This document shows positions 19,021-43,069 of a DNA stretch of 64,000 nucleotides, in pieces. Source of the stretch: an uncultured Candidatus Saccharibacteria bacterium (GTDB lineage Bacteria > Patescibacteriota > Saccharimonadia > Saccharimonadales > JAGQNJ01); NCBI GenBank assembly GCA_964491925.1, contig CAZBGZ010000001.1:701-64700 (forward strand). Reading direction: 5' to 3'. Made by a program: the position numbers and the translations under genes. The notes beneath the pieces were generated by a model. The model was not told where the DNA came from, did not search any database, and saw nothing but the letters and a program-made list of their open reading frames with translations. Positions within the stretch are counted from its first letter, which is position 1; every line of letters begins with the position of its first letter.

Positions 19021-19041
19021 TGGGGTGGCTGATGGGAATTG
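19021..19041 (-). repeat. exact 21-nt duplicate of the tRNA-His 3' end (att-like direct repeat)
   Basis: TGGGGTGGCTGATGGGAATTG at 19021-19041 is identical to 19209-19229. Confidence 0.9.
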
Positions 19042-19170
19042 GTCACTTCTAGCGACCCCTAAACTTCATCTTTGAAAACAAGTTTTCAAGAGAAGATTTC
19101 CTTGCGACATGCCATTCTGGGCATGTCTCACCCACGACCAGGCCGTGTGTTTATATTCCTATCACTATCT
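19042..19170. repeat. conserved non-coding element, copy C1 (most divergent)
   Basis: Shares with C2 and C3, in the same order: CATCT, the GAAAA-CAAG-TTTTC hairpin (19074-19087), and CACCCACGACC. Confidence 0.5.
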
Positions 19171-19208
19171 ATATTTATAAACCCTGAACAAGACAGGGTT
19201 TATAAATA
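19171..19208 (-). terminator. 15-16 bp perfect hairpin immediately 3' of tRNA-His
   Basis: ATATTTATAAACCCTG / CAGGGTTTATAAATAT arms with a 7-nt loop. Confidence 0.5.
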
Positions 19209-19348: not shown

Positions 19349-19475
19349 TTCGGGCAGGGTAATCGCACGACTGCATCTGTGCTCGAAACAAGTTTCTGCG
19401 CGTAGACTGGTCGACCGTACCAGCGACTACGGTATTTTCAAAAGAAAATCCCTGTCTCAGAACCTGATGTGCCAG
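19349..19475. repeat. conserved non-coding element, copy C2
   Basis: 19382-19427 matches 29481-29526 at 36 of 46 positions without gaps (hand count). Hairpin GAAA-CAAG-TTTC at 19385-19396. A 3' block AGAACCTGATG is shared. Confidence 0.6.
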
Positions 19476-19479
19476 AAGA

Positions 19480-19519
19480 CCATATAAAAAACCAACATCA
19501 AAGTATGTTTTTTATATGG
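19480..19519 (-). terminator. 13-bp perfect hairpin downstream of the 83-aa gene
   Basis: CCATATAAAAAAC / GTTTTTTATATGG with a 14-nt loop. Confidence 0.5.
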
Positions 19520-19557
19520 TGCAGCGTGATTGCTGAGATCAGAACTATACTGTTAAA

Positions 19558-28958: not shown

Positions 28959-29048
28959 AAACAGAGTCAGATTGGGTTGATGGGGTAATGTACGACTGTT
29001 TACGGGGTCGCGCTGAACGTACGAATTTCGAACTAATTAGTTGGGTTC

Positions 29049-29390
29049 TTATTCTCGGATAATCTCTGATTTAAACCACTTTTCTTGGAAGTGCGTCGCA
29101 TTTCGTATCTCTTCATTGCTAAATTGTTTACCATCTTCGCAGACAATCAGTTTGTCGTCGTCATCATCGGTTCTGTGCAGGATAGCAATACAGCGACCAG
29201 AAAAGATTTCAAGTGCAGTTTCTTCACCAAGTACATATACATCTATTTCTGCACCGTCGGGAGCTTTAGTATTAGGAACAAAACCGTAGTTAATAGGATA
29301 CTCATTATCGAACTTTGGGTGGTTACAGCCAAGTGGCCTGTCAACTGTAACTTGAACTATCTTACCAAGGAAGGGTTTTGAATAATCCAT
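29049..29390 (-). CDS. short inorganic-pyrophosphatase-like protein (113 aa)
   Basis: YPINYGFVPNTKAPDGAEIDVYVLGE matches the family I PPase core (NYGFIP.T...DGDP.DVLV), but the protein is about two-thirds of the usual length. Confidence 0.55.
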   Translation of the reverse strand: MDYSKPFLGKIVQVTVDRPLGCNHPKFDNEYPINYGFVPNTKAPDGAEIDVYVLGEETALEIFSGRCIAILHRTDDDDDKLIVCEDGKQFSNEEIRNATHFQEKWFKSEIIRE

Positions 29391-29442: not shown

Positions 29443-29458
29443 TGGTTGGGGTGATAGG
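29443..29458 (-). repeat. displaced tRNA-Pro 3'-end fragment (att-like repeat marking the far edge of the island)
   Basis: TGGTTGGGGTGATAGG matches 40292-40307 (TGGTCGGGGTGATAGG) at 15 of 16 positions. It is followed on the minus strand by an AAGAC/GTCTT + T-run terminator at about 29405-29430. Confidence 0.7.
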
Positions 29459-29585
29459 GCAATGCACATCTGCGTCCATGCTCGAAGCAAGCTTCTGCGA
29501 GTGGTCTGGATGACCGCACCGACGACCTTCAATCTTTTTTGCAAACAAAAAATATTGGGTCGTAGAACCCGGTGCAATGACTCCA
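29459..29585. repeat. conserved non-coding element, copy C3
   Basis: Homologous to C2 (see 19349..19475). Hairpin GAAG-CAAG-CTTC at 29484-29495. Internal stems GCACCG/CGGTGC and ACGACC/GGTCGT flank a TTTTTTG-CAAA-CAAAAAA hairpin. Confidence 0.6.
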
Positions 29586-29592
29586 AAGAATT

Positions 29593-29622
29593 AAAAAAGA
29601 CTACCTGATGGTAGTCATTTTT
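29593..29622. terminator. bidirectional Rho-independent terminator
   Basis: AAAAAA-GACTACC-TGAT-GGTAGTC-ATTTTT. Confidence 0.6.
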
Positions 29623-29767
29623 AATTGGTCGGGAGTAGCAGATTTTACTCAAACCTTAAATATGATAATCCGCCAACGCCATAACCTCAGTATTATGGTA
29701 GAACGTCTGTCTGCTGTTAGCAAATATGACGACAAGAAATTATCGCTAGTCAGTCTATAATGTTAGT

Positions 29768-29974
29768 ATGGGTAACCTGTACGAATATACTGAGACAATG
29801 AAGTACGTCAGAGATATGGTTTTTCTGGAAGTTTTAGATGATACTGAGAAATCAAAGACCTGGGTTAAGGGACTAGACAAGTTCCCAAAAAATAAAAGTT
29901 TCATAGACGATAAGGCGTGGGGCGATTTTGGCGACGATAAGCCCTTGCTAAAGAAGAAAAGTACGAAGAAATAA
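29768..29974 (+). CDS. hypothetical protein (68 aa)
   Basis: Track ORF with a Lys-rich C-terminus. Confidence 0.35.
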   Translation: MGNLYEYTETMKYVRDMVFLEVLDDTEKSKTWVKGLDKFPKNKSFIDDKAWGDFGDDKPLLKKKSTKK

Positions 29975-30093
29975 CATAGCGTGTGTTAGCTCAAACCTGG
30001 TACTTGTAATAATACTTATGGTTAGTGCTTATGTTTGGTGCTAATATGTAGTGTGTGTTGGTAATTCAAGCTCCGCTTTGAATTACGCTATTT

Positions 30094-30131
30094 GCCCGTT
30101 ACTGACTTGCGTCAGTGCGGGCTATTTCTTT
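30094..30131 (+). terminator. hairpin terminator (GCCCG-ACTGAC / GTCAGT-CGGGC) followed by a T-rich tract
   Basis: Seen at 30094-30122, followed by TATTTCTTTG. Preceded by a second 9-bp hairpin at 30061-30086. Confidence 0.5.
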
Positions 30132-30361
30132 GTACGGTTGTAAGGCGACTGGTTGGTCGGCTTCAGGCTGATACCTAGCTCAGATGCTTTACTTTGCACA
30201 GCACCAGGTGAACGACCCAGCTTTAAGCCAGCGACACGTGTTGGCGTATTGCCTCGTGCCAGTTGGCGAAGTTGAGCTTCTTGCCCTGAAGTCCAGGCTT
30301 TGCCAGAATTGGCTGGTTTTCCCATTGGAACTCCGTAACTTGAGCCTCTGTATGTCGGCAC
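30122..30361 (-). CDS. hypothetical small protein with a possible Myb/SANT-like HTH (79 aa)
   Basis: WTSGQEAQLRQLARGNTPTRVAGLKLGRSPGAVQSKASELGISL. Confidence 0.35.
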   Translation of the reverse strand: MPTYRGSSYGVPMGKPANSGKAWTSGQEAQLRQLARGNTPTRVAGLKLGRSPGAVQSKASELGISLKPTNQSPYNRTKK

Positions 30362-30625
30362 GGTGGCTCATTGTTCCCACCACCTTCTTATGCGGAGCAA
30401 TAAAAAAGCAGCAGTACGTTTATCCCGTACCCTGCTCATTGGAAATTGTTGCTGTTCTAATGAAAAGGGTGCAGGCTAAGTGTCGCTTGTTTGCAATCCA
30501 CCCCCTTGCACCTCTGTTGTCTCTCTGAGACACCTCTATATTAGCACAAGCTCGTTATCTTATATGTAGTAGTTTTTACTCCGAATTGTACGCTAGATGT
30601 AGCGTTATGCTTATGCTTAACACCT

Positions 30626-31189
30626 TTAAGTGTAAAACTTGTTGTGAAAATCAAAAAACAGTGCAGCGATTAGCACTATGTAAGTGAAAAAACATAGGGC
30701 AATACAGGCAACTTGCACTTTTATTGCAGGTCGTGGGGGGTGTATGTCTAAATTGCTCTGTGCCACATCAATCTTCTTGATTAGCTCGTCCTCGGTTTTG
30801 TAATCTCTATTGTCTATGACTAATGTTACATCGTGATATGCATCAGCCCACTTTTTATATGAGCTTTCCATTTTAAAATAGTGAACAATCCCCGCAAAGA
30901 CAGCAATTACTTCAAGAATAAACGCAAAAAGGATAAGAAACTTTTGCCCCGAAGTAAGAGAATTAAGCAATCCTCCGCTACCAAGAGCGATAACATTCAC
31001 AGAAATTAGCACTGTAGTCAGGAGTATTAACTGACCAGAAAGTGAACGCTCTGTGGTGTTAGCTTCGCTAGCCGATTTGTCTCGTTGGATTTCAAACTTG
31101 TGTTTTTGTGCAGTGAGAAACTCTACAGTGGTTGGGTCGTTGAAATCGTATTTAACGGTGTTTTGGGTTTTTATTTTTTTAGCCGCCAT
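30626..31189 (-). CDS. hypothetical membrane protein (187 aa, ~3 TM)
   Basis: Soluble N-terminus, two central TM helices, and one C-terminal TM helix. No family recognised. Confidence 0.45.
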   Translation of the reverse strand: MAAKKIKTQNTVKYDFNDPTTVEFLTAQKHKFEIQRDKSASEANTTERSLSGQLILLTTVLISVNVIALGSGGLLNSLTSGQKFLILFAFILEVIAVFAGIVHYFKMESSYKKWADAYHDVTLVIDNRDYKTEDELIKKIDVAQSNLDIHPPRPAIKVQVACIALCFFTYIVLIAALFFDFHNKFYT

Positions 31190-31192
31190 AGT

Positions 31193-31399
31193 CTATTTGG
31201 TAGATTTTGGGGTAGATTTTGGAGGGTTTGAGGTTGGCTTGATACTGGAAACAGGGGGTTTGCCGTCAATACTAACTGGATAGCCTAAAGCTCTACCTTT
31301 AACTGGTCCACTTGTAGGCGGCTTTCGGTCTAGGCTCACAGGATAACCAGTGCCTTTTCTGATAGGCTGTGGTCTGTTGCTATTCGCACGCTCACTCAT
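31193..31399 (-). CDS. hypothetical Pro-rich protein with an internal repeat (68 aa)
   Basis: GYPVSLDRKPPTS and GYPVSIDGKPPVS are tandem-like repeats. There is a 3-nt gap to the downstream membrane protein gene. Confidence 0.35.
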   Translation of the reverse strand: MSERANSNRPQPIRKGTGYPVSLDRKPPTSGPVKGRALGYPVSIDGKPPVSSIKPTSNPPKSTPKSTK

Positions 31400-31419
31400 A
31401 TTATGATTTTATCACGAAA

Positions 31420-31611
31420 CTATAGGTCTTTTTTGTCTACGGCGTTCCCTGAGTTCCTTTTTTTGAACTCGCTTATAGCCATACCTGCCATAAAATCAAG
31501 GTCTGTGATAATTTTTATGACCTGTTCATCAGTGTACTTTTCAGCTTCCTTACCCATAAGCTTACGAGCCTCTTTGACGGATATAATCAGACCTTCGTCT
31601 TTATAAGTCAT
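31420..31611 (-). CDS. hypothetical protein (63 aa)
   Basis: Track ORF. First gene of the minus-strand cargo cassette. Confidence 0.35.
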   Translation of the reverse strand: MTYKDEGLIISVKEARKLMGKEAEKYTDEQVIKIITDLDFMAGMAISEFKKRNSGNAVDKKDL

Positions 31612-31669
31612 TTCTGTTCTCCTTCTCTTAATTGTTACACTATTATAGCTTTCTACCCCTGTTAATACG

Positions 31670-31678
31670 TGCTACAAT
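31670..31678 (+). promoter_or_regulatory. extended -10 promoter (TGcTACAAT)
   Basis: 31670-31678. The predicted start site falls at the foot of the 13-bp stem that begins at 31685. Confidence 0.45.
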
Positions 31679-31684
31679 ATAAGG

Positions 31685-31786
31685 GTCTAAACTCACATCA
31701 GAGAAACGCCTTTTCGGCGTAGTTGAACCATACAATGGGCAGCTACGTAAAAAAGCAATAGGTTCAACCCTGTTGTGAGTTTAGAC
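31685..31786 (+). promoter_or_regulatory. 102-nt structured leader / nested inverted-repeat element upstream of the glycine-zipper gene
   Basis: Perfect 13-bp stem GTCTAAACTCACA (31685-97) / TGTGAGTTTAGAC (31774-86). It encloses the hairpin ACGCC-TTTTC-GGCGT (31706-20) and the 8-bp stem GTTGAACC (31722-29) / GGTTCAAC (31761-68). Confidence 0.5.
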
Positions 31787-31842
31787 ACTAGCGTGGCTGT
31801 CCTTTTTATTTGGGAACGCCACAAATAAACAAGGAGGTTACT

Positions 31843-32247
31843 ATGCTAATTGGAGGTACGTTCTACGTTTTCTACAGTGGTGGACTAGATTTAATGCCAA
31901 GACCTGGCAAATACCAATTACGATTATCTAAAAGGCATATCAGTGTTGTACCTACATTCAGAGCACCTGATGCAAAGAAGTTTGAAATACCTGTGTCAAA
32001 TCTAAAAGGCGTTTCGCTTGATTATGAAATTACGGACAGACAATTATCTGCTGGAAAAGCTATTGTCGGTGGTGTTATCGCTGGTGGCGTTGGTGCAATA
32101 GCAGGTGCTTCTATGGGTGGCAAGAAAGCAACGCCATCTTTGGTTATTAGCTTTATTGACGAAACAGGTAGCGAAAAACTGTTGCCTTTGGAGGGAAATA
32201 AGTTAGATTCTGCTCATAATATGATGGTCAAGAAGTACGGGCTATAG
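31843..32247 (+). CDS. hypothetical protein with a PH/GRAM-like N-terminus and a glycine-zipper segment (134 aa)
   Basis: ATG at 31843 with AAGGAGG 5 nt upstream (the track starts at TTG 31810). Glycine-zipper segment: GKAIVGGVIAGGVGAIAGASMGG. Confidence 0.5.
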   Translation: MLIGGTFYVFYSGGLDLMPRPGKYQLRLSKRHISVVPTFRAPDAKKFEIPVSNLKGVSLDYEITDRQLSAGKAIVGGVIAGGVGAIAGASMGGKKATPSLVISFIDETGSEKLLPLEGNKLDSAHNMMVKKYGL

Positions 32248-32493
32248 TTCCTTCTGCTTCTTGTCTTTGTATATATCGTATATAAGATTAGCCAGTGCCT
32301 CGGCGTCCTCTTTCATAGCATCACGTCTTGCCAGTTCCTCTACTTGTTCCTTAGTTATCGGCTGATATACGGTTTTCATCTGCAACACCAGCATAGTGAG
32401 TTTGTGCCGAGCTGTCTGACTATCCAGCTCTTTGCCAAACTTTGACTTATAAAGTTTTTGGAAGTCTTTTACATCTTCGTCGGTAATGTCCAC
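32242..32493 (-). CDS. hypothetical helical protein (83 aa) immediately downstream of res
   Basis: Starts 1 nt after the res stop. No motif recognised. Confidence 0.4.
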   Translation of the reverse strand: MDITDEDVKDFQKLYKSKFGKELDSQTARHKLTMLVLQMKTVYQPITKEQVEELARRDAMKEDAEALANLIYDIYKDKKQKEL

Positions 32494-32494
32494 G

Positions 32495-34993
32495 CTATTT
32501 CGCCATTAGGTTGTTTAGTTGGTCTTTCCAGCTTTTTTGGTTAAGCATTTCAAAGTGGAAGTCCATATCAGCACTACCTAGGTCAAGTTCTTGCCAGCTT
32601 TTTTCTATTGCCTGCTCGTTACAAAGGTCAAAAACGCTTTTCTTGTATTCCGAGTCCTCGTTGCCAACTAATTGGTCGCCTTTAGACTCCAGTACATATA
32701 CTTTGTCGTAATCATCTCCCGACTTGTGGCTAGCTAAAAAGTCAGGGTATATTCTGCCTGGCTTCCAGCCCTGTATACGATAATCCTTTTTAGCTTCGTT
32801 TCTGTACCACCATAGGAGCTGGCTCTGGTCGTCCAAATACAAAGCGACAGCCTCCTCAAGCTCGTTTATGTCCTCGCTTGGCACGTAATTGAACAGACTT
32901 CGCTCCAGGTCGTCATCGTGATAGTTTCGTAATCTCTGCCTGCTCCTGACGGTTGCTTTGCTTCTAAGTGGCTTGTCGCTGAGTAGGTAAAACTTCATCT
33001 CGCCACTTTTTAGCATTTTCTTGAATACTGCCTCCGCCAATCTGTCCCGTTCGGCGAACAGAGTCTTTCTGAGGCTCTCTATGACAAATACGAGGTTACT
33101 CGCAACTACTTCTATACCATTAGCCTTAATAAGCGAGGTTATAGCCGCATTTGCAGTCTCGTAAGCAATCCAGGGGTTTGGCACGATGTCTACTATTTGT
33201 CTGGCTACATATTCGGTATCAACTTCCGATTCGTAGCTGAGTTCTTTTTCTTTTCTGGACAGTGGTTTGCCGTCTGCATCAAGCCCTACAGCTATCGTAA
33301 TATCATCTACGGTTCGGTTTTCCAGACTTAATTCGGATATAGCTGAGAGGTCGGCTTTGTCCCAGTCTATCTGGCTCAATATATCGGTACTGTAGCGTAC
33401 TTCTCGCCAATCCCGCCCGTCATTTACGGCAAAGAAGGGTAGGTACACTTTGCCTGCAAACTTTTTGAACTTGTCTTGGTACTCTATCGGCTTTTCGTCC
33501 AGGTAATCAGGGTTGGTTTCCTCGTTTGTATCTACGGCTATACGTCCTGCCAAGTCGCCAAGCCCCTCGCCCTCAAGGTTTTGTTTAATGCCTTTAACCA
33601 GTTTGGTCGTATCGTGCTGGAAACTGTACACGTAGCACTCGTCCAGCTCAGTTACACCTGTCTTTTTGGCGTATGGCTGCCTAAGTACACGTCCGATAAG
33701 CTGTGTCATTGCCGTTTCGGATTGTGATTTGGTCAAACTACATAGCACATAGGCGAATGGGCAGTCCCAACCTTCCTGTAACGCCTGTTTGGTTATGATA
33801 AACCGTATCGGACAACCTTGCTCAAGCAAGTCTATACCCTCAATGTCGTCTTTCTCGGTAGATTTTATGGCGATTTGTTCCTCTGGTACGCCCGCCTGTT
33901 TCATCAGGTATTCTTTAACGTCCTCTGCGTGGATATACACTCCGTCCCGTTGGTCTTTGCCTGTACGTTCCACCTGCACGAGCATTATCGGGCGTATGTA
34001 ATTATTGGTGTTCTGTTCGTATTCTTTGGCGATTTCCTGCAATTTGCCTAAATAGTTAGTAGCGTCGGCGACGGTTTCTTTCCAGCCTACGGTCGTTTTG
34101 TTGACCAGGTGCAGGTCTAGTTTAATCATCTGTTCGTCGTTCAGCTCTTTGCCTGTTATCTCTACCAGTTTATTGGCTGATTCTGGGGGAGTTGCGGACA
34201 GCTCCAGCAAGAATGACGGGTTAAAGCCTGCGATAGTGTCTCTTGCAGTTGGGCTGTACGCCTTATGACCTTCGTCAATGATGGTTATTGGTTTGAGTAA
34301 CCGAAGTACGTTACCAAGTGAAGTTTTAGGTAAGTTGCCCCACATATAGCCCTCCGCTCCAAAGGTATCAAGATTCGGTACTTGCTCCAGCAGGCGGGTT
34401 TGGAGCTTATAGGCGTCCTCGGCTGGGAAAAACTCGGTATAACCAGTGTTGTCTTTGAATACTTTTAGTGTTTCCTTGCTTTGTCTGGAAGCAGAAGGGA
34501 GCATCAGAAGCATCACGCATAGATTTTCGGCTACGTCATCAGGTGTAAAGCGGTCTAGTTTTTCAAGGATTAAGGTTTTACCACCACTGCTTACGTCTAG
34601 CACTTGTCTGTAAGGGTGTTGTCGGTCTCGCAGGTTATTGAGTGTCTGACGGTATATCTGGGTGGTTGGCACAATCCAAAGCACCATACCGTTCTGCTTA
34701 TTCAGATATACCTTGTTTATTAGGTCAATGCTGTGGCAAGCAAGCAGGGTTTTACCACCGCCTGTCGGTACTTTCAGGTACATATTTGGTACAGGTTCGC
34801 CGATACCGTTAAACGTCTTTTTGTAACTGTCTAGCCCTATTTCTTTCCAGGCTTTAGCAGGAAAATGTATGTCATTAGCAAGTTCAGCGTCTGCCTCTTT
34901 GACCCGTTCGTAGCGTTCTCGTTGTTCTACCAGGGCGGTAAGATAGCCCGATAGTGCTTGAGTTACCTTTTTTTGGTATTCTCTAAGCTCCAT
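32495..34993 (-). CDS. res: Type III restriction enzyme, Res subunit (SF2 helicase + PD-(D/E)xK nuclease)
   Basis: Motif I VPTGGGKTLLA, motif II IIDEGHKAY, and a C-terminal YPDFLA...VYVLESKGD nuclease motif. There is a 2-nt gap after mod. Confidence 0.85.
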   Translation of the reverse strand: MELREYQKKVTQALSGYLTALVEQRERYERVKEADAELANDIHFPAKAWKEIGLDSYKKTFNGIGEPVPNMYLKVPTGGGKTLLACHSIDLINKVYLNKQNGMVLWIVPTTQIYRQTLNNLRDRQHPYRQVLDVSSGGKTLILEKLDRFTPDDVAENLCVMLLMLPSASRQSKETLKVFKDNTGYTEFFPAEDAYKLQTRLLEQVPNLDTFGAEGYMWGNLPKTSLGNVLRLLKPITIIDEGHKAYSPTARDTIAGFNPSFLLELSATPPESANKLVEITGKELNDEQMIKLDLHLVNKTTVGWKETVADATNYLGKLQEIAKEYEQNTNNYIRPIMLVQVERTGKDQRDGVYIHAEDVKEYLMKQAGVPEEQIAIKSTEKDDIEGIDLLEQGCPIRFIITKQALQEGWDCPFAYVLCSLTKSQSETAMTQLIGRVLRQPYAKKTGVTELDECYVYSFQHDTTKLVKGIKQNLEGEGLGDLAGRIAVDTNEETNPDYLDEKPIEYQDKFKKFAGKVYLPFFAVNDGRDWREVRYSTDILSQIDWDKADLSAISELSLENRTVDDITIAVGLDADGKPLSRKEKELSYESEVDTEYVARQIVDIVPNPWIAYETANAAITSLIKANGIEVVASNLVFVIESLRKTLFAERDRLAEAVFKKMLKSGEMKFYLLSDKPLRSKATVRSRQRLRNYHDDDLERSLFNYVPSEDINELEEAVALYLDDQSQLLWWYRNEAKKDYRIQGWKPGRIYPDFLASHKSGDDYDKVYVLESKGDQLVGNEDSEYKKSVFDLCNEQAIEKSWQELDLGSADMDFHFEMLNQKSWKDQLNNLMAK

Positions 34994-34995
34994 CG

Positions 34996-36627
34996 TTACT
35001 TAACCTTATATATTTCAAAAGGTAGTTGGCAAAAATCTATTTTAAGCTCGTCCAGCTCGCCAGTCTCAACGTATTTGGTCGGTGCGAATACCAGTAGCGG
35101 GCGACTGCCAGCGTGTTCACGCAGTTCACGAGCCATATTCAGTGTTAAGGCTGTTTGTTTCAGGTATTCCAAATCTGGCTTGTAGAGCATATATACGTCA
35201 TAGTGGCTTGAACTCCCAACGAATTGCTTGGCTTCGTCCATTTTAGCCTCGTCAAACTCCTCGCCTGTTGCTGTGTAGTAAACATACCGTGCCAGCTCTA
35301 GGTAACTTGGGAGTTTTTTGCCTGTCAGTATTCCTTCGGTTTCTATGGGGTCGCCTAGGTCAAAGTAGCTGAATGAACCGCCAAGCCCCGCTTTAACAAG
35401 TTCGTTTTTCGCCGTTGGTACACCTTTTATTACACGGCGTACTCGTTCGGCAGTTATTGAATCTGCGTGGTCTTCAAGCTCTACTAGCACAAACTTTCGT
35501 GTCCCACCATCTTCCTTGTTAAGCTCCAATAACGCCTGTGCTGTCGTGCCCGTACCTGCGAACGAGTCAAGAACTATTGCTTCTTTATCATCGTGGGTAG
35601 CATAATCTAGCAGGTATTTGAGTAGTTTGGAGGGCTTTGGGTTCTCAAAAATCCGTTCACCAAAAATAGCCTCCAACTCTTTATTGCCATCTTGAGTAAA
35701 ACCAACGACTTCTTGTTTTAAAACACTGCGAGCTTTTACCCGCCTACCGTCTCCGTTTTCGTTCACAAGGTAGGTTTTTGTATATATCTGCCATTCACCA
35801 CTAGGGTCTTTCTTGAACTCTATTTCGTTGTTTGATTTTCTTCTTTCAAACTCCTTTGGCGAAAGTCTCCAAGGTGTTGGCGATGCACTTTTCATTGTAC
35901 CGTCAGGGCATTTTATTTCGTAAATAAGGTTTGGTCGGTCAGTGGCTATACCTTTTTTATCAAGCCTGTCTAGGTAGTAACGACCACGCTCGTCTTCGTA
36001 GCGGAACATTTTCTCATAATCAGGTGGCGGGGTCACGAATAATTCAGGGAGTACTGACAAGTCCTTTGCATAGACCAAAATATGCTCGTGCTCCTTTACA
36101 AGGTGTGGGCTATCACCGCCTCCGCCGTGCTTGTTCTTCCAGATGAACTCTCCAACACTGTTTGTTTCACCGAAAATATCATCAAGGAGAATCCTTAGAC
36201 GGTGAGATTCGTTCTCGTCAATACTAACCAGAAATAACCCATCGCTTGTTAGTAATTCCTTTAAGAGCTTTAGACGAGGCATAAGCATACAAAGCCACTT
36301 ATCGTGACGTGTAAGGTCTTCGCCTTCTTTTCCAACAACTTCTCCCAACCATTCTTTTATTAGCGGGCTATTGACCTTGTCGTTATAACGCCAGCCCTCG
36401 TTTCCTGTGTTGTAAGGTGGGTCAATGTAAATACACTTGATTTTGCCTGCATAAGTGGGCAGCAAGGCTTTTAGGGCTAATAGATTGTCGCCGTGAATAA
36501 TAAGGTTGTCGTGCAGACTGACTTTATCTGCTAGGCTTTTGTCTTTTTGCGGCACGAGTTGGTGGTATGGTACTGCAAGGTGATGGTTCTGGACGAAGGA
36601 TTTTCCTTTGAATTGTAAAAATGGCAT
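34996..36627 (-). CDS. mod: Type III restriction-modification methyltransferase, Mod subunit (beta-class N6A/N4C)
   Basis: IYIDPPYNTGN (motif IV) precedes DSFAGTGTTAQA (motif I). Confidence 0.85.
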   Translation of the reverse strand: MPFLQFKGKSFVQNHHLAVPYHQLVPQKDKSLADKVSLHDNLIIHGDNLLALKALLPTYAGKIKCIYIDPPYNTGNEGWRYNDKVNSPLIKEWLGEVVGKEGEDLTRHDKWLCMLMPRLKLLKELLTSDGLFLVSIDENESHRLRILLDDIFGETNSVGEFIWKNKHGGGGDSPHLVKEHEHILVYAKDLSVLPELFVTPPPDYEKMFRYEDERGRYYLDRLDKKGIATDRPNLIYEIKCPDGTMKSASPTPWRLSPKEFERRKSNNEIEFKKDPSGEWQIYTKTYLVNENGDGRRVKARSVLKQEVVGFTQDGNKELEAIFGERIFENPKPSKLLKYLLDYATHDDKEAIVLDSFAGTGTTAQALLELNKEDGGTRKFVLVELEDHADSITAERVRRVIKGVPTAKNELVKAGLGGSFSYFDLGDPIETEGILTGKKLPSYLELARYVYYTATGEEFDEAKMDEAKQFVGSSSHYDVYMLYKPDLEYLKQTALTLNMARELREHAGSRPLLVFAPTKYVETGELDELKIDFCQLPFEIYKVK

Positions 36628-36734
36628 AGCACTATTTTGTCACACTTTGACAGAGTTTGTTAGGGGTAATTACATAAAATGACAGATTGGGAGCGAATGG
36701 GTATTGACTGGTAGCTAATTTTATTGCACTTTAT

Positions 36735-36763
36735 TTGATTTAACAGAGGTCATTTGCTATAAT
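36735..36763 (+). promoter_or_regulatory. strong sigma70-like promoter TTGATT-N17-TATAAT
   Basis: -35 element at 36735-40 and -10 element at 36758-63. Drives the RarA_C-like / integrase pair. Confidence 0.55.
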
Positions 36764-36800
36764 TATACATACAAACCTTAACAATTTGGGGGCAAAAATT

Positions 36801-37427
36801 ATGGCAAAAGATGCTAAATCTGGCAATGCAAAATCATCGTATCGTGGAGGGTACGAGCTAAGGCTGATTGGAGACTACAGCTTTGACGAGGCAACCTCCG
36901 CAATGCAGAAGATGATTCGCCGTAATAAGGAGTACGAGGCTTGCTGGTGGGCTTACATACTCCACGACAGTGGCTACTACAAATATGTCTGGCGTAGGTT
37001 GATGATAATCGCTTCGGAAGATGTAGGTAACGGTAATCATATGGCAGCCGTTATAGTTAATGCCCTCAGACAGAATTACGAAGCCACTATAGATAGTAAA
37101 ACCCGTCTTGGTGGCAACGGTTCCTTGTTTATCTTTCAAGCAGTTATGTACCTGTGTTCGTCCGAAAAGCTACGAGAAGTAGACACCCTTGCTAACCTGA
37201 TAATCAAGGAGTTCAAGGACGGTAAACGCCTAGAAGTACCAGAAGTCGCCATTGACCCCCATACAGCCCAGGGCAAGAAAATACACGGTCGTTGGGAGCA
37301 AGGCACGGATGAGGAGAAAACGGAGAGATACAAGAAATGGTATGAGGTATGGTCTTATGTAACTCCTGCCTCAAAACAACCAGATAAGTACCTAGATAAG
37401 TGGAAAAGGTTGGAGGGTAAGACGTGA
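36801..37427 (+). CDS. RarA/MgsA C-terminal-domain-only protein (no AAA+ module)
   Basis: SFDEATSAMQKMIRRN..ACWWAYIL....YVWRRLMIIASEDVGNGN aligns with the E. coli RarA region HYDVISAFHKSVRGS..ALYWYARII...YVARRCLAIASEDVGNADP (recalled from memory). No Walker motifs are present. ATG at 36801 is preferred over TTG 36786. Confidence 0.6.
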   Translation: MAKDAKSGNAKSSYRGGYELRLIGDYSFDEATSAMQKMIRRNKEYEACWWAYILHDSGYYKYVWRRLMIIASEDVGNGNHMAAVIVNALRQNYEATIDSKTRLGGNGSLFIFQAVMYLCSSEKLREVDTLANLIIKEFKDGKRLEVPEVAIDPHTAQGKKIHGRWEQGTDEEKTERYKKWYEVWSYVTPASKQPDKYLDKWKRLEGKT

Positions 37428-38317
37428 GAAGTCTTGAGGCACATATAGTTTTCAAGGACTATGGAGCAGTCTTTGATAATTTAGATGTAGCTGAAAGCAC
37501 CAGAGCAGATTATTGCTACCGTTTGCCATTATTCGTAGATTTCGTGAACACCCACGCCTTTACGTCAAATACGTACTTGGACTATAAAAAGTATCTACGA
37601 ACAATGCCGTGGTCTGTTTCTACCAAAAACAAGCACCTTATAGTAGCAAGGGTTTTTCTGAAAGAACTGCACCGCCAGGGTTTACTGCCAACTGACATCA
37701 CACATAACGTCAAGGCTTTTAAGCAAAGCAAGAAACACAAGAAACGTGGCTTGAATGACATTGAGGTTAAGAAGCTTACTGCTTGGCTCTCCAATCTGCC
37801 AGACGAGCCTGAAAACGACAGATTAAAAGCACTTTTCAGTCTGCTGTTATTGCAAGGTTTGCGTTTAGTGGAGATATACAGACTAGATGTTGAGGACTTT
37901 GACCCTTATAACGATAGGATGTTCGTATGGGGTAAAGGCAGAGACGATAAAGAATCAGTACCATTATTGCCTCAGTCTGTTGCCTGCCTACGACAGTATC
38001 TACGGAGCAATAACATAAGAGAGGGTGCGTTATTCAGGAGCAACAGCAACAGTCAAATGGGCAAAAGATTATCTACTCGTGGGCTTCGTGAGATTATTTC
38101 AGTAATATTCCATATGCTACACATCAACAAGACTGCTCACGGTACACGCCATTTTTATACCAGCCAGCTACTAAAGCAGATGCCAGGAGAACTACTAGAC
38201 GTGGCACAATTCACACGACATCGCAGTATAGAGATGCTTCGTGAATACGATAACCGAAATAAGCAGGACTTCGCATTAGAAAAAGTAATATCTGCATTTG
38301 CGGGTATAAGTTTTTAA
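37424..38317 (+). CDS. tyrosine recombinase / phage-type integrase
   Basis: LQGLRLVEI (Arg), AHGTRHFYTS (HxxR) and RHRSIEMLREY (His...Tyr). The GTG start overlaps the upstream stop by 4 nt. Confidence 0.8.
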   Translation: MRSLEAHIVFKDYGAVFDNLDVAESTRADYCYRLPLFVDFVNTHAFTSNTYLDYKKYLRTMPWSVSTKNKHLIVARVFLKELHRQGLLPTDITHNVKAFKQSKKHKKRGLNDIEVKKLTAWLSNLPDEPENDRLKALFSLLLLQGLRLVEIYRLDVEDFDPYNDRMFVWGKGRDDKESVPLLPQSVACLRQYLRSNNIREGALFRSNSNSQMGKRLSTRGLREIISVIFHMLHINKTAHGTRHFYTSQLLKQMPGELLDVAQFTRHRSIEMLREYDNRNKQDFALEKVISAFAGISF

Positions 38318-38321
38318 GTAA

Positions 38322-38527
38322 TAAGCTAACTTGCCCCAACAATTACCTAACATTCGGGCTAAATAAGTTTGGAAGTGGTCTAAATTACGACACAAAATGT
38401 TAGGCAAATAACAGGCAATTCATAGGATTTAAGCTAACGTAACACCCCTCAAAGCCAAATAGTCTAGGGAATTGGCAGGAAATTGCTAGGAAACGAGCTA
38501 AATAAAACACCCCTTTACTGCCAATAA
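38322..38527. repeat. cluster of short direct repeats in the ORF-free spacer between the two recombinase genes
   Basis: TAAGCTAAC x2 (38322, 38430); GCTAAATAA x2 (38358, 38497); AACACCCCT..(A)..GCCAA.TA x2 (38441, 38506). Confidence 0.5.
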
Positions 38528-38617
38528 CACTAATTACAAGCACTAACTTTACACCTTAAAAATGTATCTACTATTTGAACCCTAGCAAACTATAATAAAC
38601 ATATGGAGACATTTTAG

Positions 38618-40303
38618 TTGGACAACAACCCTCTTGACCTATTTAAGCTGGTACAAAACCAGTTAGAGCCTAGCATACCTAAACCTGTAGTACCGTCTGA
38701 ACTTAGATACGCAATCTATGCACGTAAATCAACCGAGAGCGAGGAGCGGCAGGTACGCTCCATACCAGACCAAATTAGTGATTGTATGGAGCTTGTTGTT
38801 GAACCAAACAATATAGTTATTAACCAAAAAACTGATATTTACAAAGAGGAAAAATCCGCCAAGGAAGCGGGTACAAGACCTGTATTCCGTGAGCTAATGA
38901 AAAAAATAATTGACGGTAAGTATGATGGCATAATTTCGTGGCACTACGACCGCCTGGCTCGCAATATGAAAGAGGCTGGCGAGATAATTGAGCTTATAGA
39001 TAACGGTCAAATTAAAGACTTAAAGTTGGCTAAAGCCACGTTTGAAAACACACCAAACGGGAAGATGATACTTGGCATTAGTTTTGTGCTGTCAAAACAC
39101 TACTCAGACCATCTCAGCGAGTCTGTAACACGAGGCAACAAGAGCAGTACCGAGAAAGGCAGAGTTCTCAGTAAGTTTGTCCACGGCTATATTATTGCCG
39201 ACGATAAGCGTCTGATAGCTGATGACCGAAACTACCTAATTATTGAGCACGCTTTTCGTATGCGGTTAGACGGTAAATCACAGAAAGAAATAGCAGAGTA
39301 TATAAACAAGAGTGGCTATCAGGTGCACCGCTCTACTGTTGGTCATAGGATACGTACTTTTGACGAAGATATGGTATCTAAGCTCTTAAAAGAGCCTATA
39401 TACGCTGGCATATGGGTCTATGGTAAGACTGCTGTGAAGATGGCTGACGTTGACCCGAACTTTACACCTATGCTTACGGAGGAGGAGTTCTTTGCAATCA
39501 ACGGTAGAAAGTTCCAGCTATCTTATATCAAGAGTGCTGCTGCCCGTGTTGCGTCCAATGACAGGTCTAATTTCCTACGTCAGTTTGTAATCTGCGGGCA
39601 CTGTAAACGCAATCTTGGGACTAGTGTTACGTCAAAGTTTATAAAGTTATCTGGTAGATCTGGTAAGTCGGTACAGTACTACTTCCGCTTTAAGTGTAAT
39701 AACAAGGTCTGTGTAGCCTTTGGTAGTGGACCTAAGGGTTCGCTTATCAAGGATTACGTAACCGATTTCTTACAAAACCACTTATTTACAACCAAGAGCA
39801 ATTACAAACGCTACTTGGAGGACGCAGAGACGTTTTTGCAGGAGAGAAAGGCAGAGCTTACGTCTGCCAATAAAAGCTTTACCGTTCTGCTTAGCAAGAA
39901 ACGCCGTGAATACGATGACGCTAAAGCCATAGCAGCCGACACCGAAAATCCACTAGCTGTGCACTACACGCCAAAACACCTAGATAAGCTGAAAAAGGAA
40001 GTTGACGATTATAACAAGCAGGTGTTGGAGATTCGGCAAGAACTGGAAGACCAAAACACTGCTTTGGTGTCATATGACGAGTTTCTCAAACTTTACGAAA
40101 ATGCCGCCGAATTACTTCGGTCAACTTACGGAATGGCAATGGCTGACGAACTGATACGGATTTTCTTCTCAAACCTTACTGTTGTAAGTAAGCCGTATGG
40201 CAAAAAAATGACACAAAAACAGTGGTCAATAGTAGACCACTGCCTTAACGAGCCATTTGACGATTTCGTCAAAAACGGCGATTTTCTTACTTGGTCGGGG
40301 TGA
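38618..40303 (+). CDS. large serine recombinase (resolvase domain + recombinase domain + zinc ribbon + coiled coil)
   Basis: YAIYARKSTESEERQVRSIPDQ (catalytic Ser region), DRLARN, and CGHCKRNLG...CNNKVC. The last 12 nt overlap the tRNA-Pro 3' end. Confidence 0.85.
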   Translation: MDNNPLDLFKLVQNQLEPSIPKPVVPSELRYAIYARKSTESEERQVRSIPDQISDCMELVVEPNNIVINQKTDIYKEEKSAKEAGTRPVFRELMKKIIDGKYDGIISWHYDRLARNMKEAGEIIELIDNGQIKDLKLAKATFENTPNGKMILGISFVLSKHYSDHLSESVTRGNKSSTEKGRVLSKFVHGYIIADDKRLIADDRNYLIIEHAFRMRLDGKSQKEIAEYINKSGYQVHRSTVGHRIRTFDEDMVSKLLKEPIYAGIWVYGKTAVKMADVDPNFTPMLTEEEFFAINGRKFQLSYIKSAAARVASNDRSNFLRQFVICGHCKRNLGTSVTSKFIKLSGRSGKSVQYYFRFKCNNKVCVAFGSGPKGSLIKDYVTDFLQNHLFTTKSNYKRYLEDAETFLQERKAELTSANKSFTVLLSKKRREYDDAKAIAADTENPLAVHYTPKHLDKLKKEVDDYNKQVLEIRQELEDQNTALVSYDEFLKLYENAAELLRSTYGMAMADELIRIFFSNLTVVSKPYGKKMTQKQWSIVDHCLNEPFDDFVKNGDFLTWSG

Positions 40304-40368
40304 TAGGACTCGAACCTACGACCTCCGCGTCCCAAACGCGGCGCGCTAGCCAACTGCGCCACACCCCG
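40292..40368 (-). tRNA. tRNA-Pro (anticodon UGG), CCA encoded
   Basis: Acceptor CGGGGTG/CACCCCG, D arm GCGC-AGTTGGCTA-GCGC, anticodon arm CCGCG-TTTGGGA-CGCGG, T arm GTAGG-TTCGAGT-CCTAT. Confidence 0.92.
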
Positions 40369-41166: not shown

Positions 41167-42063
41167 ATGGTCAAAAAAACTAAAAACAAAAAAACTAAAC
41201 AAAATCCTAAGTTTCTAAAGGCGTTATTACTGGCTGGGATTATTATTTTAATTGGGACAATCCTTTCTCTCATGCTATCTGTAAAAAAGAAAAGCAGCGA
41301 AGCTGAGTCTAGAAAGACATACTCGGTTCACATTGTCGCAGGGCAATCAAATGCCGTTGGTTTGGGCAGCAATCCTGCCAGTTTCCCGTCAGATTCGACA
41401 AATAAAAAAATCAAATTTTATTATGCTCATGACACTAATTCGGGTGGGAAAATTGTAAATCTCAAAAACCAACGAATGCCAATCAGTAAAAGCAAATCAG
41501 GTTTTGGACCAGAAGTGGGCCTATCAAGAGAATTATTTAAAAATGGTTATAAAAATATTTTAATAATAAAAATTGCTAAAAGCGGTACATCTATGCAAAA
41601 AAGTTGGAACCCAAAAACAGGCACCCTGTATAATCAATACATTAAAAAAGAGACTGCAAAAGCTTTAGCCAAACTAGAAAAACAAGGTTATAAATATTCT
41701 GTCGATGGTTTCTACTGGATGCAAGGCGAATCTGATATGACTGCCGCAGCTGCACCGTCATATAAAAACAATCTGAAACTATTTATAGCGGCTGTTCGAA
41801 AAAACACCAAAAACCCAAGACTTAAGTTTGTAATCGGGAGACCAAATAACCCTAAATCGCCGGCAAAATACAGAGCAATGGTCAGGAGCGCTCAGCTGAG
41901 TGTATCGCATTCCGTCCCCAATGTTTCACTTGTCAATACTGACGACCTAAAACTAGCTGACTTTGTACACTACAATAGTGAAAGCCAAATCAAACTAGGA
42001 AAAAGATTCTTCCAAAAGATAAAACCATACATGGCCAAGAAATATCCTAACGGCCTAAAATAG
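41167..42063 (+). CDS. SASA/DUF303-type carbohydrate O-acetylesterase-like protein, membrane anchored (paralog 1)
   Basis: HIVAGQSNAVGLGS and YWMQGESD. N-terminal Lys-rich region plus a TM anchor. Confidence 0.6.
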   Translation: MVKKTKNKKTKQNPKFLKALLLAGIIILIGTILSLMLSVKKKSSEAESRKTYSVHIVAGQSNAVGLGSNPASFPSDSTNKKIKFYYAHDTNSGGKIVNLKNQRMPISKSKSGFGPEVGLSRELFKNGYKNILIIKIAKSGTSMQKSWNPKTGTLYNQYIKKETAKALAKLEKQGYKYSVDGFYWMQGESDMTAAAAPSYKNNLKLFIAAVRKNTKNPRLKFVIGRPNNPKSPAKYRAMVRSAQLSVSHSVPNVSLVNTDDLKLADFVHYNSESQIKLGKRFFQKIKPYMAKKYPNGLK

Positions 42064-42175
42064 ACCCGTCCGTCGAACTTTACAGCACACAATTGTTAAA
42101 ACAATATGTTTGATTGTATCTATTGCAACGGTTTATATCAAATGGTAATATATCACCAAAGTAAAAAATAAAAAT

Positions 42176-43069
42176 ATGTCACAAAATAAACAACTGAATA
42201 AAAATGGTTTCGCAATAATTGAACTTTTTGTAATTTGTTTGATTATTTTTACAATCATCGGTTTTGGAATATTTATTATAAAAAGGTCAGGCAATAATAA
42301 CTCTGTCAGCGAAGCCGAATCCAAACCTGATGTTTACAGTGTTCATATTATTGCAGGTCAATCTAATGCGGTAGGCGGCGGTACCTCCGAAAGAGACCTC
42401 CAGGAATCGAGCGTGGACCAAAAAGTCAAATTTTATTATCAGCATCAATCTAGCTCTGATGGTAAAATCGTTAACTTAAAAGCACAAAAAATAACTAGTA
42501 AGCAAACGGGGTTCGGCCCCGAAATTGGCCTAGCTCGAGATCTTTACGCCAATGGTTACAAGAAAATTCTTATAATTAAAGTGGCCTATGGGGCAACCGA
42601 CCTACACAATCAGTGGAAGGCACCAAATGGACCACTGTATACAAAATATATTCGTGGAACCGTCCCCAGAGCACTTCGCGAACTCAAAAAGCAAGGTCAC
42701 GATTACTCAATCGACGGATTTTACTGGGTTCAAGGTGAAGCAGACATGTATTGGGGGAACGGTAGATACTATAAAAACGATATGATCAACTTTATATCGC
42801 AGGTCAGAAAAGACCTTAACAAGCCAAATCTAAAAATTATTATTGCCCGCACAAATATGCCTGAAGCAAAACCTAGTGAGCGTAAACTAGTCAGGGATGC
42901 TCAGGTTAAAGTAGCCAATACTACCCCTAATGTAAGGTGGGTTAACACAGATGATCTACCGCTCTCAGATAACTTGCACTACAGCTCCAGGGGGCAAGTT
43001 ATACTCGGCCAACGCTTCTTTGAAAAGATAAAAACTCACATGAACAAACACTACCCGCAGGGGCTGTAG
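42176..43069 (+). CDS. SASA/DUF303-type O-acetylesterase-like protein with a prepilin-type signal (paralog 2)
   Basis: HIIAGQSNAVGGGT and YWVQGEADM. N-terminal NKNG|FAIIELFVICLII, with G at -1 and E at +5. Confidence 0.6.
   Translation: MSQNKQLNKNGFAIIELFVICLIIFTIIGFGIFIIKRSGNNNSVSEAESKPDVYSVHIIAGQSNAVGGGTSERDLQESSVDQKVKFYYQHQSSSDGKIVNLKAQKITSKQTGFGPEIGLARDLYANGYKKILIIKVAYGATDLHNQWKAPNGPLYTKYIRGTVPRALRELKKQGHDYSIDGFYWVQGEADMYWGNGRYYKNDMINFISQVRKDLNKPNLKIIIARTNMPEAKPSERKLVRDAQVKVANTTPNVRWVNTDDLPLSDNLHYSSRGQVILGQRFFEKIKTHMNKHYPQGL

Follow-up and report, generated by a model that had tools for sequence, protein, structure and literature searches.

How did an island of about 10.7 kb come to lie beside the tRNA-Pro(tgg) gene of an uncultured Candidatus Saccharibacteria bacterium, and which of its two recombinases brought it there? 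The locus lies within a 64,000 nt stretch of contig CAZBGZ010000001.1 (hereafter the window), and the recombinases are a large serine recombinase (LSR) and a Xer-like tyrosine recombinase (Table 1). The analysis makes it likely that positions 29626-40299 are an integrative element of Saccharimonadales, inserted via the LSR by conservative site-specific recombination. Its junctions, the architecture of its attachment (att) sites, a conserved in-frame tail, a circular relative, and variable cargo and site occupancy can all be read in silico; catalysis by the LSR, the exact crossover dinucleotide, and a difference in activity or stability between its long and short forms are what we infer from them.

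Boundaries of the island

A sequence-only reading of the window had placed a mobile island at tRNA-Pro, which the conserved junctions and variable cargo of its relatives bear out, and had taken a 16 nt repeat as the island's boundary, which they contradict. The repeat itself is present: a pattern search finds the last 16 nt of tRNA-Pro (TGGTCGGGGTGATAGG) again at 29443-29458 with one mismatch, and at up to three mismatches there are two matches in total within 64 kb, where 0.22 are expected. However, the homology of the window's island to that of a relative (L005) begins at 29618-29627 (L005 positions 4382-4390), not at 29443, and five islands with the same left junction (L007, L013, L015, L141 and L142) lack the repeat; the 16 nt repeat therefore does not bound the recombinase island.

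The window's left junction reads aatTGGTCGGGagtagcagattttactcaaacc, in which a second, short copy of the tRNA end directly follows the terminator at 29599-29616. The same junction, composed of a terminator hairpin, TGGTCG and a conserved arm, is common to the window, L005, L007, L013, L015, L016, L141 and L142, and TGGTCG is the smallest core common to all relatives. The recombinase island is accordingly delimited by sequence comparison to 29626-40299 (~10.7 kb), bounded by TTGGTCGGG at 29625-29633 and 40291-40299. Because the relatives share this junction, mostly without the 16 nt repeat, positions 29443-29625 are a separate mini-module of ~183 bp. The terminator hairpin abuts the attR core in 8 of 8 islands and abuts the tRNA in many empty sites, and the terminator at 29599-29616 is best read as the one that followed tRNA-Pro before the LSR island inserted. 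The AAGAC/GTCTT plus T-run terminator that the sequence-only reading had described to the left of 29443 is there as sequence, but its loop measures 12 nt and the terminator scan did not call it.

The serine recombinase family

Sequence, fold and att-site architecture all place the LSR among the serine integrases. Its PF00239 domain (E = 6.6e-20) carries a YARKS motif in which R36, K37 and S38 are invariant among 23 homologues, and it has a PF07508 domain (E = 5e-13) and four cysteines (326, 329, 360 and 365) that are likewise invariant. The AlphaFold2 (AF2) model of the LSR, with a mean predicted local distance difference test score (pLDDT) of 81, predicts long helices at 393-479, and Foldseek matches it to the full-length SPbeta, phiC31, LI and Bxb1 integrases (E = 2e-19 to 7e-5). 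In sequence, the LSR is far from known ones, reaching E = 2e-6 to SprA and falling below all NCBIfam cutoffs.

There are more than 1,000 LSR homologues at E < 1e-20, and the nearest genome match is a Candidatus Saccharimonadales metagenome-assembled genome (L005), whose LSR is 79% identical. As the sequence-only reading had stated, the LSR gene reads into the tRNA's 3′ end: its last 12 nt (40292-40303), with the TGA stop, lie inside tRNA-Pro. Among the relatives with enough flank to judge this geometry, the LSR open reading frame (ORF) also ends 12 nt inside tRNA-Pro(tgg) in L005, L007-L009, L011, L013-L015 and L141 (49-80% identity); it ends at tRNA-Gln(ttg) in a clade of 48% identity (L016), and 10-13 nt inside tRNA-Gly(gcc) in a clade of 37-38% identity (IMG/VR contigs L143 and L144). 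The last of these clades was recovered from IMG/VR by an alignment query, a single-protein query having given one distant match. Moreover, the C-termini are tRNA-Pro-antisense peptides in 102 of the 120 best homologues, where 34 end in WSG and stop (frame 1) and 68 end in GRG..., GRGERT and stop, and similar sequences (frame 2). Across these homologues, the geometry marks the whole LSR family as one whose genes run into a tRNA 3′ end, and its persistence in the tRNA-Gln and tRNA-Gly clades indicates that target specificity has moved between tRNAs within the family. Literature searches returned no account of these elements in Saccharibacteria.

Attachment sites

For six islands, attP (LSR 3′ end, core and left-end arm) and attB (terminator, core and tRNA) were reconstructed; in the window, attP is 40252-40291 joined to 29626-29665, and attB is 29586-29625 joined to 40292-40331. 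Adding the real attP sequences of L018 and L020 gives eight attP in total. In all eight, the motif CTCRAAC occupies +23 to +29, counted from the T of TGG, and the same motif stands at +18 to +24 in the tRNA (window 40309-40315; TTCGAAC in tRNA-Gln). In Rutherford et al., the motif for the zinc ribbon domain occupies positions 16-24 of attP half-sites but 11-19 of attB half-sites, a 5 bp shift (PMC3783163); judged by position, the 5 bp offset of CTCRAAC between attP and the tRNA matches this serine-integrase rule. The att sites of these islands have the serine-integrase design in that the shared core measures only 6-10 nt and the distal motif lies 5 bp nearer the centre in attB. Further, attL and attR have different bases before TGG in 4 of 6 islands, which locates strand exchange inside TGGTCG. 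Across 80 LSR-free sites, the B-arm consensus shows T-richness at -4 to -8 and nothing else.

A motif in the P′ arm, TTTTACTCAAACCTTA (29643-29658), recurs as TTCTTCTCAAACCTTA in the LSR gene (40163-40178), ~130 nt upstream of the core. The second copy encodes the conserved peptide FFSNLT, and it may be an accessory site or a chance recurrence.

Recombinase coding across the attachment site

The attP site lies inside the integrase ORF, as in self-disrupting integrases. When the LSR ORF is joined to the left-end arm, it stays open for 37-41 further codons in 6 of 6 islands, including that of the tRNA-Gln clade. In the five tRNA-Pro islands, the other two frames of the tail each meet a stop after 3-20 codons; L016 has one that stays open for 40. 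The tails end in AVSKYDDKKLSLVSL (window), AISMHDDGKLAYIQL (L013), SISMVDDKKLLSIRL (L015) and NISMVDDKKLLEIRL (L016), each followed by a stop, and have in common the terminal motif DDKKLxxIxL and stop, whose conserved residues are encoded by differing codons in each lineage (Leu by TTA, CTT or TTG; Asp by GAC or GAT). In L016, the frame relative to the core is shifted by one base and the tail is still in the LSR frame. With a stop chance of ~0.06 per codon, we estimate that 40 open codons arise by chance with a probability of ~0.07 per independent lineage. The excised form would encode an LSR of ~602 aa, from which integration would drop the last ~41 codons, giving the 561 aa form that ends in WSG.

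A relative with an untruncated gene is available. L018 and L019 are Logan contigs of 5,667 nt (SRR26786778/9), each with a 30 nt terminal overlap, and they are identical after a 68 nt rotation (0 mismatches in 5,637); the overlap and the identity after rotation establish a circular element of 5,637 bp. Its untruncated LSR of 593 aa has the core TGTGGTCGAGAG, CTCGAAC at +23 and a 40 aa tail, and the circle also encodes DUF5681 and DUF3761 proteins and lacks a tyrosine recombinase. Within the LSR family, it represents a small form that is either extrachromosomal or excised. L020 has the same attP configuration as the circle, and a tyrosine recombinase is absent from it as well. In protein searches, a word-indexed query with the LSR C-terminus plus tail returned fragments and one attR ORF, with no tail-bearing full-length LSR, and an exhaustive HMMER search with the 44 aa tail returned that attR ORF alone, from sequences whose 50% clustering merges long and short forms.

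Alternatively, the tail might not be translated with the LSR, its conservation arising at the DNA level (as P′ arm or as promoter or leader of ORF68) or from a separate small gene. In keeping with this, the P′ arm makes up the first ~30 nt of the tail, the tail stretch has a higher DNA identity (82-87%) than the LSR gene (~75%), ORF68 begins 8 nt downstream, and an ORF caller placed a 71 aa ORF (P0123) across an attR junction. We nevertheless judge this account quite improbable: the tail follows the LSR frame even in L016, with its different core-relative frame; the other two frames close early, apart from the one in L016; the DDKKL..I.L residues use differing codons between lineages; and the real circle has one continuous 593 aa ORF with a tail of equivalent length. 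Taking the tail as the coding end of the LSR, the start of ORF68 only 8 nt after the tail stop implies that LSR and ORF68 would form one operon in the circle, broken by integration. Self-disrupting integrases have tyrosine chemistry and a gene split into two non-functional parts; here the enzyme is a serine recombinase, and ~41 of ~602 codons are removed.

Integration would also displace the tRNA terminator. The hairpin at 40216-40246 is antisense to the conserved peptide KQKQWS..DHCL, has palindromes at the same position in L013 and L015, and is probably a replacement terminator for tRNA-Pro that the element supplies.

Proposed mechanism

In the proposed mechanism, the free circle would express the ~602 aa LSR and then ORF68. 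The LSR would recombine attP, at its own 3′ end, with attB, composed of the tRNA-Pro 3′ end and its terminator, with the exchange taking place within TGGTCG; since TGGTCG corresponds to the ...CGACCA-3′ end of the tRNA, the tRNA would be regenerated on integration. The same event would cut the LSR frame and move the ~41-codon tail and ORF68 10.7 kb away, to the left end of the island. The integrated LSR would then end in WSG on a stop supplied by the T-stem of the tRNA, and the hairpin within its coding region would take over from the displaced terminator.

Several observations weigh against this reading. Comparison with empty sites, which the sequence-only reading had proposed as a check, turned up many LSR-free tRNA-Pro sites, but exact-protein look-ups yielded no isogenic counterpart in which the site is empty between the window's own flanking genes (PPase-like and His-phosphatase). 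Likewise, the search for circular forms yielded the circle described above, whose LSR is only ~41-42% identical, but no circular or attP form for the close subfamily (>50% identity). The dyad symmetry of attP is weak (0.39 compared to a background of ~0.25), and the best dyad centre lies 1 nt outside the shared core, at the core start, which places the crossover no more closely than within TGGTCG. No recombination directionality factor was recognized, ORF68 being a candidate by position only. In the AF2 model of the 602 aa protein, the body is confident and the tail is modelled as a helix at low confidence (pLDDT 28-46), giving no information on docking; with values below 50, the model lends no structural support to a role for the tail.

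Some of these points would also be expected if the island came by the LSR and is now an immobile remnant, in which the 561 aa LSR is inactive ("suicidal", as in the archaeal SSV-type integrases) and the tail serves only an incoming element. The integrated LSR gene is without ~41 conserved codons, an attP form of the close subfamily and a directionality factor were not found, and a review of archaeal suicidal integrases gives exactly such logic (PMC8371274). However, dozens of divergent integrated copies keep the truncated ORF intact and at full length as far as WSG, which argues for continued selection on the short form; the core is intact at both junctions; and the turnover of cargo at one site (L007 and L142, with the same B arm) implies continuing exchange. 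An immobile remnant is therefore an unlikely outcome, and an integrative element inserted via its LSR remains the preferred reading.

The tyrosine recombinase

The sequence-only reading had called the tyrosine recombinase, 300 nt upstream of the LSR gene, an integrase. Its position was right, but the proposed role did not hold up, as the protein is short, Xer-like and absent from LSR-only relatives. It consists of a SAM-like N-domain and a catalytic domain only, in which RxxE, HxxR and (H)..Y motifs can be read by eye, and it scores 81 bits to XerA (cutoff 220), 72.7 to XerC (cutoff 335) and 60.4 to XerD (cutoff 330). Lying below the curated equivalog cutoffs of the XerC/XerD resolvases, it resembles Xer proteins in architecture alone. 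In the clades of 48-92% identity it is found together with the LSR, always with a small upstream partner that is MgsA_C-like or DUF488. No conserved inverted or direct repeats were found that could be its site. A 23 nt inverted repeat (30021/38525) had been considered for this role and was dropped as a chance occurrence, as it is not conserved in six other islands. We infer that the tyrosine recombinase and its MgsA_C-like partner are an accessory module, which would resolve multimers of the circular form.

The assignment could be reversed, with the whole block 29443-40307 forming one island that the tyrosine recombinase inserted via the 16 nt repeat, and the LSR being cargo or a second, unrelated recombinase. 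The repeat is real and improbable by chance, a repeat spanning the tRNA 3′ end as far as the T-loop is classically the mark that a tyrosine integrase leaves, and the enzyme present has intact catalytic motifs. Set against this, L007, L013, L015, L141 and L142 have the same tyrosine recombinase and LSR module without the repeat, modules with 16-22 nt repeats exist without a nearby recombinase, the backbone homology ends at 29618-29627 instead of 29443, the tyrosine recombinase is short, Xer-like and 2 kb from the junction, and LSR-only elements employ the same core. Insertion by the tyrosine recombinase is consequently very hard to credit. The locus also departs from a tRNA island of a tyrosine integrase in that the only repeat bounding the island is TTGGTCGGG and the gene adjoining the tRNA is the LSR. 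Overall, the LSR-only relatives, including the closed circle, and a Xer-like tyrosine recombinase that scores below the cutoffs point to the LSR as the integrase for this junction.

Cargo turnover and site occupancy

The islands have a common backbone (tail fragment, ORF67/68, ORF83, cargo, MgsA_C-like gene, tyrosine recombinase and LSR), and the cargo differs in every island. It comprises two D12 methyltransferases and a 464 aa protein in L007; a ThaI endonuclease and a C5 methyltransferase in L142, whose LSR is 92% identical to that of the window; Abi_C in L015; two methyltransferases in L016; and a dehydrogenase, a hydrolase and an APH-family kinase in L141. The B arm is the same in L007 and L142, where the cargo is different.

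Occupancy varies as well. A pattern for tRNA-Pro only, run against metagenomes, gave 124 sites on contigs from many phyla (GC contents of 33-70%), many with flanks shorter than the LSR gene; tblastn found an LSR upstream in 3 of them (next to the tRNA in L100 and L121, at a distance of ~800 nt in L086), and at a fourth site (L066) an LSR-like sequence that reads into the tRNA was seen by eye. At many of the LSR-free sites the terminator directly abuts TGGTCGGGG, and at least 10 of these sites are in relatives with the window's RNase Y neighbourhood and a usable flank. Exact-protein look-ups with both flanking genes returned only the Logan contigs L001-L004 (SRR14932608/9), which are broken inside tRNA-Pro on both sides. 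One of these contigs also breaks at ~30535. The breaks could reflect population heterogeneity, of which they are at most a weak hint, or merely shared tRNA k-mers. With or without an island, the orientation of tRNA-Pro relative to ClpB and RNase Y is opposite in two groups of Saccharimonadales (the window compared to L013, L011, L061 and L075), which marks the tRNA-Pro neighbourhood as a rearrangement hotspot.

Mini-modules at tRNA genes

The mini-module to the left of the island (C3) has one significant BLAST similarity: C3 (29456-29629) matches 19356-19520 (C2) with 66% identity over 177 nt (E = 4e-12). C2 is located between tRNA-His and tRNA-Arg(tct), outside the tRNA-His mini-insertion, and looks like a degenerate tRNA-Arg(tct) version of the module. 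The sequence-only reading had described C3 with a bidirectional terminator, which is found at 29599-29616, and had equated it with the tRNA-His mini-insertion (19021-19208). The latter gives no BLAST match to C3 but does share its architecture: a perfect 16 nt (21 nt) copy of the tRNA end, a CAAG-loop hairpin and a terminator. A weaker C-like fragment that it had reported at 28972-29035 has no BLAST match even at E ≤ 10, although by eye ~17 of 22 nt resemble the start of C2.

Such modules are 128-194 bp long, lie just downstream of a tRNA and end in a 16-22 nt copy of that tRNA's 3′ end, in which the identity always stops in the T-loop. They are present in the window at tRNA-His (188 nt, perfect copy) and tRNA-Pro; in L114 at tRNA-Arg, tRNA-His and tRNA-Pro; in L141 and L086 at tRNA-Arg; and in L030, L073, L122 and L137 at tRNA-Pro. 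The tRNA-Pro modules of L030, L073, L114, L122 and L137 lie 168-189 nt from the tRNA, none of them with an LSR, and a C3-type module is absent from the left junctions of the islands in L007, L013, L015, L141 and L142. On these sequence grounds, the C3 module is taken to be older than and unrelated to the LSR island at tRNA-Pro. The suggestion of repeated use of the site stands in this limited sense, that a C3 module preceded the LSR island and is independent of it.

The modules share a CAAG-tetraloop hairpin, a terminator, a degenerate, inverted version of the tRNA end by which the structure is closed, and a long hairpin whose 5′ arm copies the T-stem and variable region of the tRNA (ACCTNCGACC). 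Covariation is seen in 19 of 35 predicted pairs among five alignable copies. Differences in minimum free energy between the strands are mixed, and RNAalifold gives -22.1 kcal/mol on both; because both strands fold equally, RNA and DNA hairpins, and the strand used, are indistinguishable. In the window, Rfam has no match to the modules at gathering thresholds, and nothing overlaps the C3 body even at E ≤ 10. That they are structured RNAs is one candidate reading. No recombinase was found near the modules on the contigs examined. The T-loop boundary is what a tyrosine integrase crossing over in the T-loop would leave, so the modules may derive from another class of integrative element, as remnants or in miniature form. 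By analogy with integron attC sites and the CTX phage, another possibility is that the module is a folded single-strand att site for a Xer-like recombinase, its closing stem imitating the acceptor/T-stem duplex of the adjacent tRNA. A broader proposal, in which the swap of the LSR C-terminus, with the simultaneous uncoupling of ORF68, acts as a built-in directionality or stability switch and the mini-modules are new independent mini-elements or structured RNAs, is offered tentatively, as possible and short of probable.

Gene content of the locus

The cargo of the window's island agrees with its earlier description as a Type III restriction-modification system plus about seven unannotatable small genes, both in PADLOC/Pfam and in ORF searches: a Mod gene (N6/N4 methyltransferase) and a Res gene (SF2 helicase-nuclease) are adjacent, and the seven small ORFs of the island have slight or no annotation. 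The 83 aa ORF (32242-32493) belongs to the backbone and is conserved in L005, L007 and L142, and the MgsA_C-like gene is conserved in L005, L007, L008, L010, L141 and L142. Beyond the island, between tRNA-Pro and RNase Y, 41167-43069 holds a tandem pair of paralogous genes of the SASA family (sialate O-acetylesterase-like) together with a histidine phosphatase gene, a position that is filled by other genes in L005 and L007.

Table 1. Features of the tRNA-Pro locus, in window coordinates.
Feature	Position	Strand	Basis and remarks
PPase-like gene	29049-29390	-	ORF and profile searches; left flank of the site
C3 mini-module, apart from the LSR island	29443-29625		16 nt copy of the tRNA-Pro end (29443-29458), ~130 nt of conserved hairpins, terminator
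Bidirectional intrinsic terminator	29599-29616		Terminator scan; B arm of the reconstructed attB
attR common core, TTGGTCGGG	29625-29633	+	Identical to 40291-40299
P′ arm of attP, left end of the element	29626-29665	+	CTCAAAC at 29648-29654, +23 to +29 from the T of TGG
Displaced LSR 3′ end (putative), 44 codons and stop, WSGVADFTQTLNMIIRQRHNLSIMVERLSAVSKYDDKKLSLVSL	29626-29760	+	Continues the LSR frame only when excised (attP form)
ORF68	29768-29974	+	Conserved backbone gene (MxNLYEHTL...); start 8 nt past the tail stop
Six small ORFs	30122-32493	mixed	79 aa (-), 187 aa membrane protein (-), 68 aa (-), 63 aa (-), 145 aa (+), 83 aa (-)
Type III Res (restriction endonuclease), cargo	32495-34993	-	Pfam ResIII; PADLOC REase_III, E = 1.8e-184
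Type III Mod (DNA methyltransferase), cargo	34996-36627	-	Pfam N6_N4_Mtase; PADLOC MTase_III, E = 6e-153
MgsA/RarA C-terminal-domain-like protein, backbone	36786-37427	+	Tyrosine recombinase gene begins before this gene ends
Xer-like tyrosine recombinase, 297 aa, accessory backbone	37424-38317	+	300 nt upstream of the LSR gene
LSR, integrated 561 aa form ending in WSG and stop	38618-40303	+	Resolvase and Recombinase domains
12 bp hairpin and T-run, tRNA-sense strand, within the LSR coding region	40216-40246	-	Terminator scan; 46 nt downstream of tRNA-Pro
P arm of attP (LSR 3′ coding end) and attL core TTGGTCGGG (40291-40299)	40252-40299	+	att reconstruction
tRNA-Pro(tgg)	40292-40368	-	ARAGORN and Rfam; 3′ part is the B′ arm of attB, CTCGAAC at 40309-40315

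Significance and comparison with known systems

Serine integrases are prized for genome engineering, being simple and directional, and how their direction is set, with or without a directionality factor, is an active structural question. The LSR family offers hundreds of members from the candidate phyla radiation (CPR) whose target is the universally conserved 3′ end of a tRNA, and a gene that integration rewrites is a testable natural experiment. The family is also a ready set of attB, attP and integrase for Saccharibacteria, where genetic tools are scarce, and its elements show how restriction-modification systems and other defence cargo travel among reduced CPR genomes. The mini-modules are a recurrent, unexplained feature of these genomes.

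Like the serine integrases of phages and integrative and conjugative elements (ICEs), such as phiC31, Bxb1, A118/LI, SPbeta SprA and TP901-1, the LSR has a catalytic N-domain, a recombinase domain, a zinc ribbon with four invariant cysteines and a coiled coil, and its sites have a short attP-attB identity and a distal arm motif 5 bp further out in attP. Unlike them, its target is the extreme 3′ end of a tRNA, its attP lies inside the integrase ORF, and its sequence is very distant. Characterised serine integrases mostly hit protein-coding or intergenic sites, and tRNA targets are typical of tyrosine integrases. In one survey, 16 of 23 attB sites of tyrosine integrases overlap tRNA or tmRNA genes, and six serine-integrase sites are listed, their location unstated (PMC10654092).

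The window's locus resembles the tRNA islands of tyrosine integrases, and the tandem arrays of ICEs and cis-mobilizable elements (CIMEs), in being tRNA-adjacent with a restored tRNA, in its defence cargo and in the second small element (C3) in tandem; it differs from them in that the large island has a 6-10 nt core and a serine enzyme. Tandem accretion of integrative elements and of integrase-less derivatives at tRNA sites is known from CIMEs and ICEs. In contrast to those derivatives, the C3 module is a conserved structured unit of 128-194 bp without an integrase and not a random deletion remnant.

The closest parallel for the gene arrangement is that of the archaeal SSV-type suicidal integrases, which also have attP in the recombinase gene, a product that is altered on integration, tRNA targets and a compact module of att site and integrase gene (PMC8371274); a 2021 review knew self-disrupting recombinases from archaea only (PMC8371274). 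SSV-type integrases are tyrosine enzymes split into two large fragments, whereas the LSR is a serine enzyme in which only a ~41 aa tail would be exchanged and the catalytic and DNA-binding domains stay intact. In Myxococcus phage Mx8, the tyrosine recombinase IntP has attP within its own gene, and integration alters its product. In mycobacteriophages BPs, Brujita and Charlie, attP lies near the 3′ end of the repressor gene, and the integrated and free forms differ in C-terminus and in stability or activity; there, a repressor gene is altered by a tyrosine integrase, and here it is the recombinase gene itself. If the swap of its C-terminus does act as a switch, the LSR would be a serine integrase that modifies itself, the first of its kind, and the bacterial equivalent of the archaeal SSV-type integrases.

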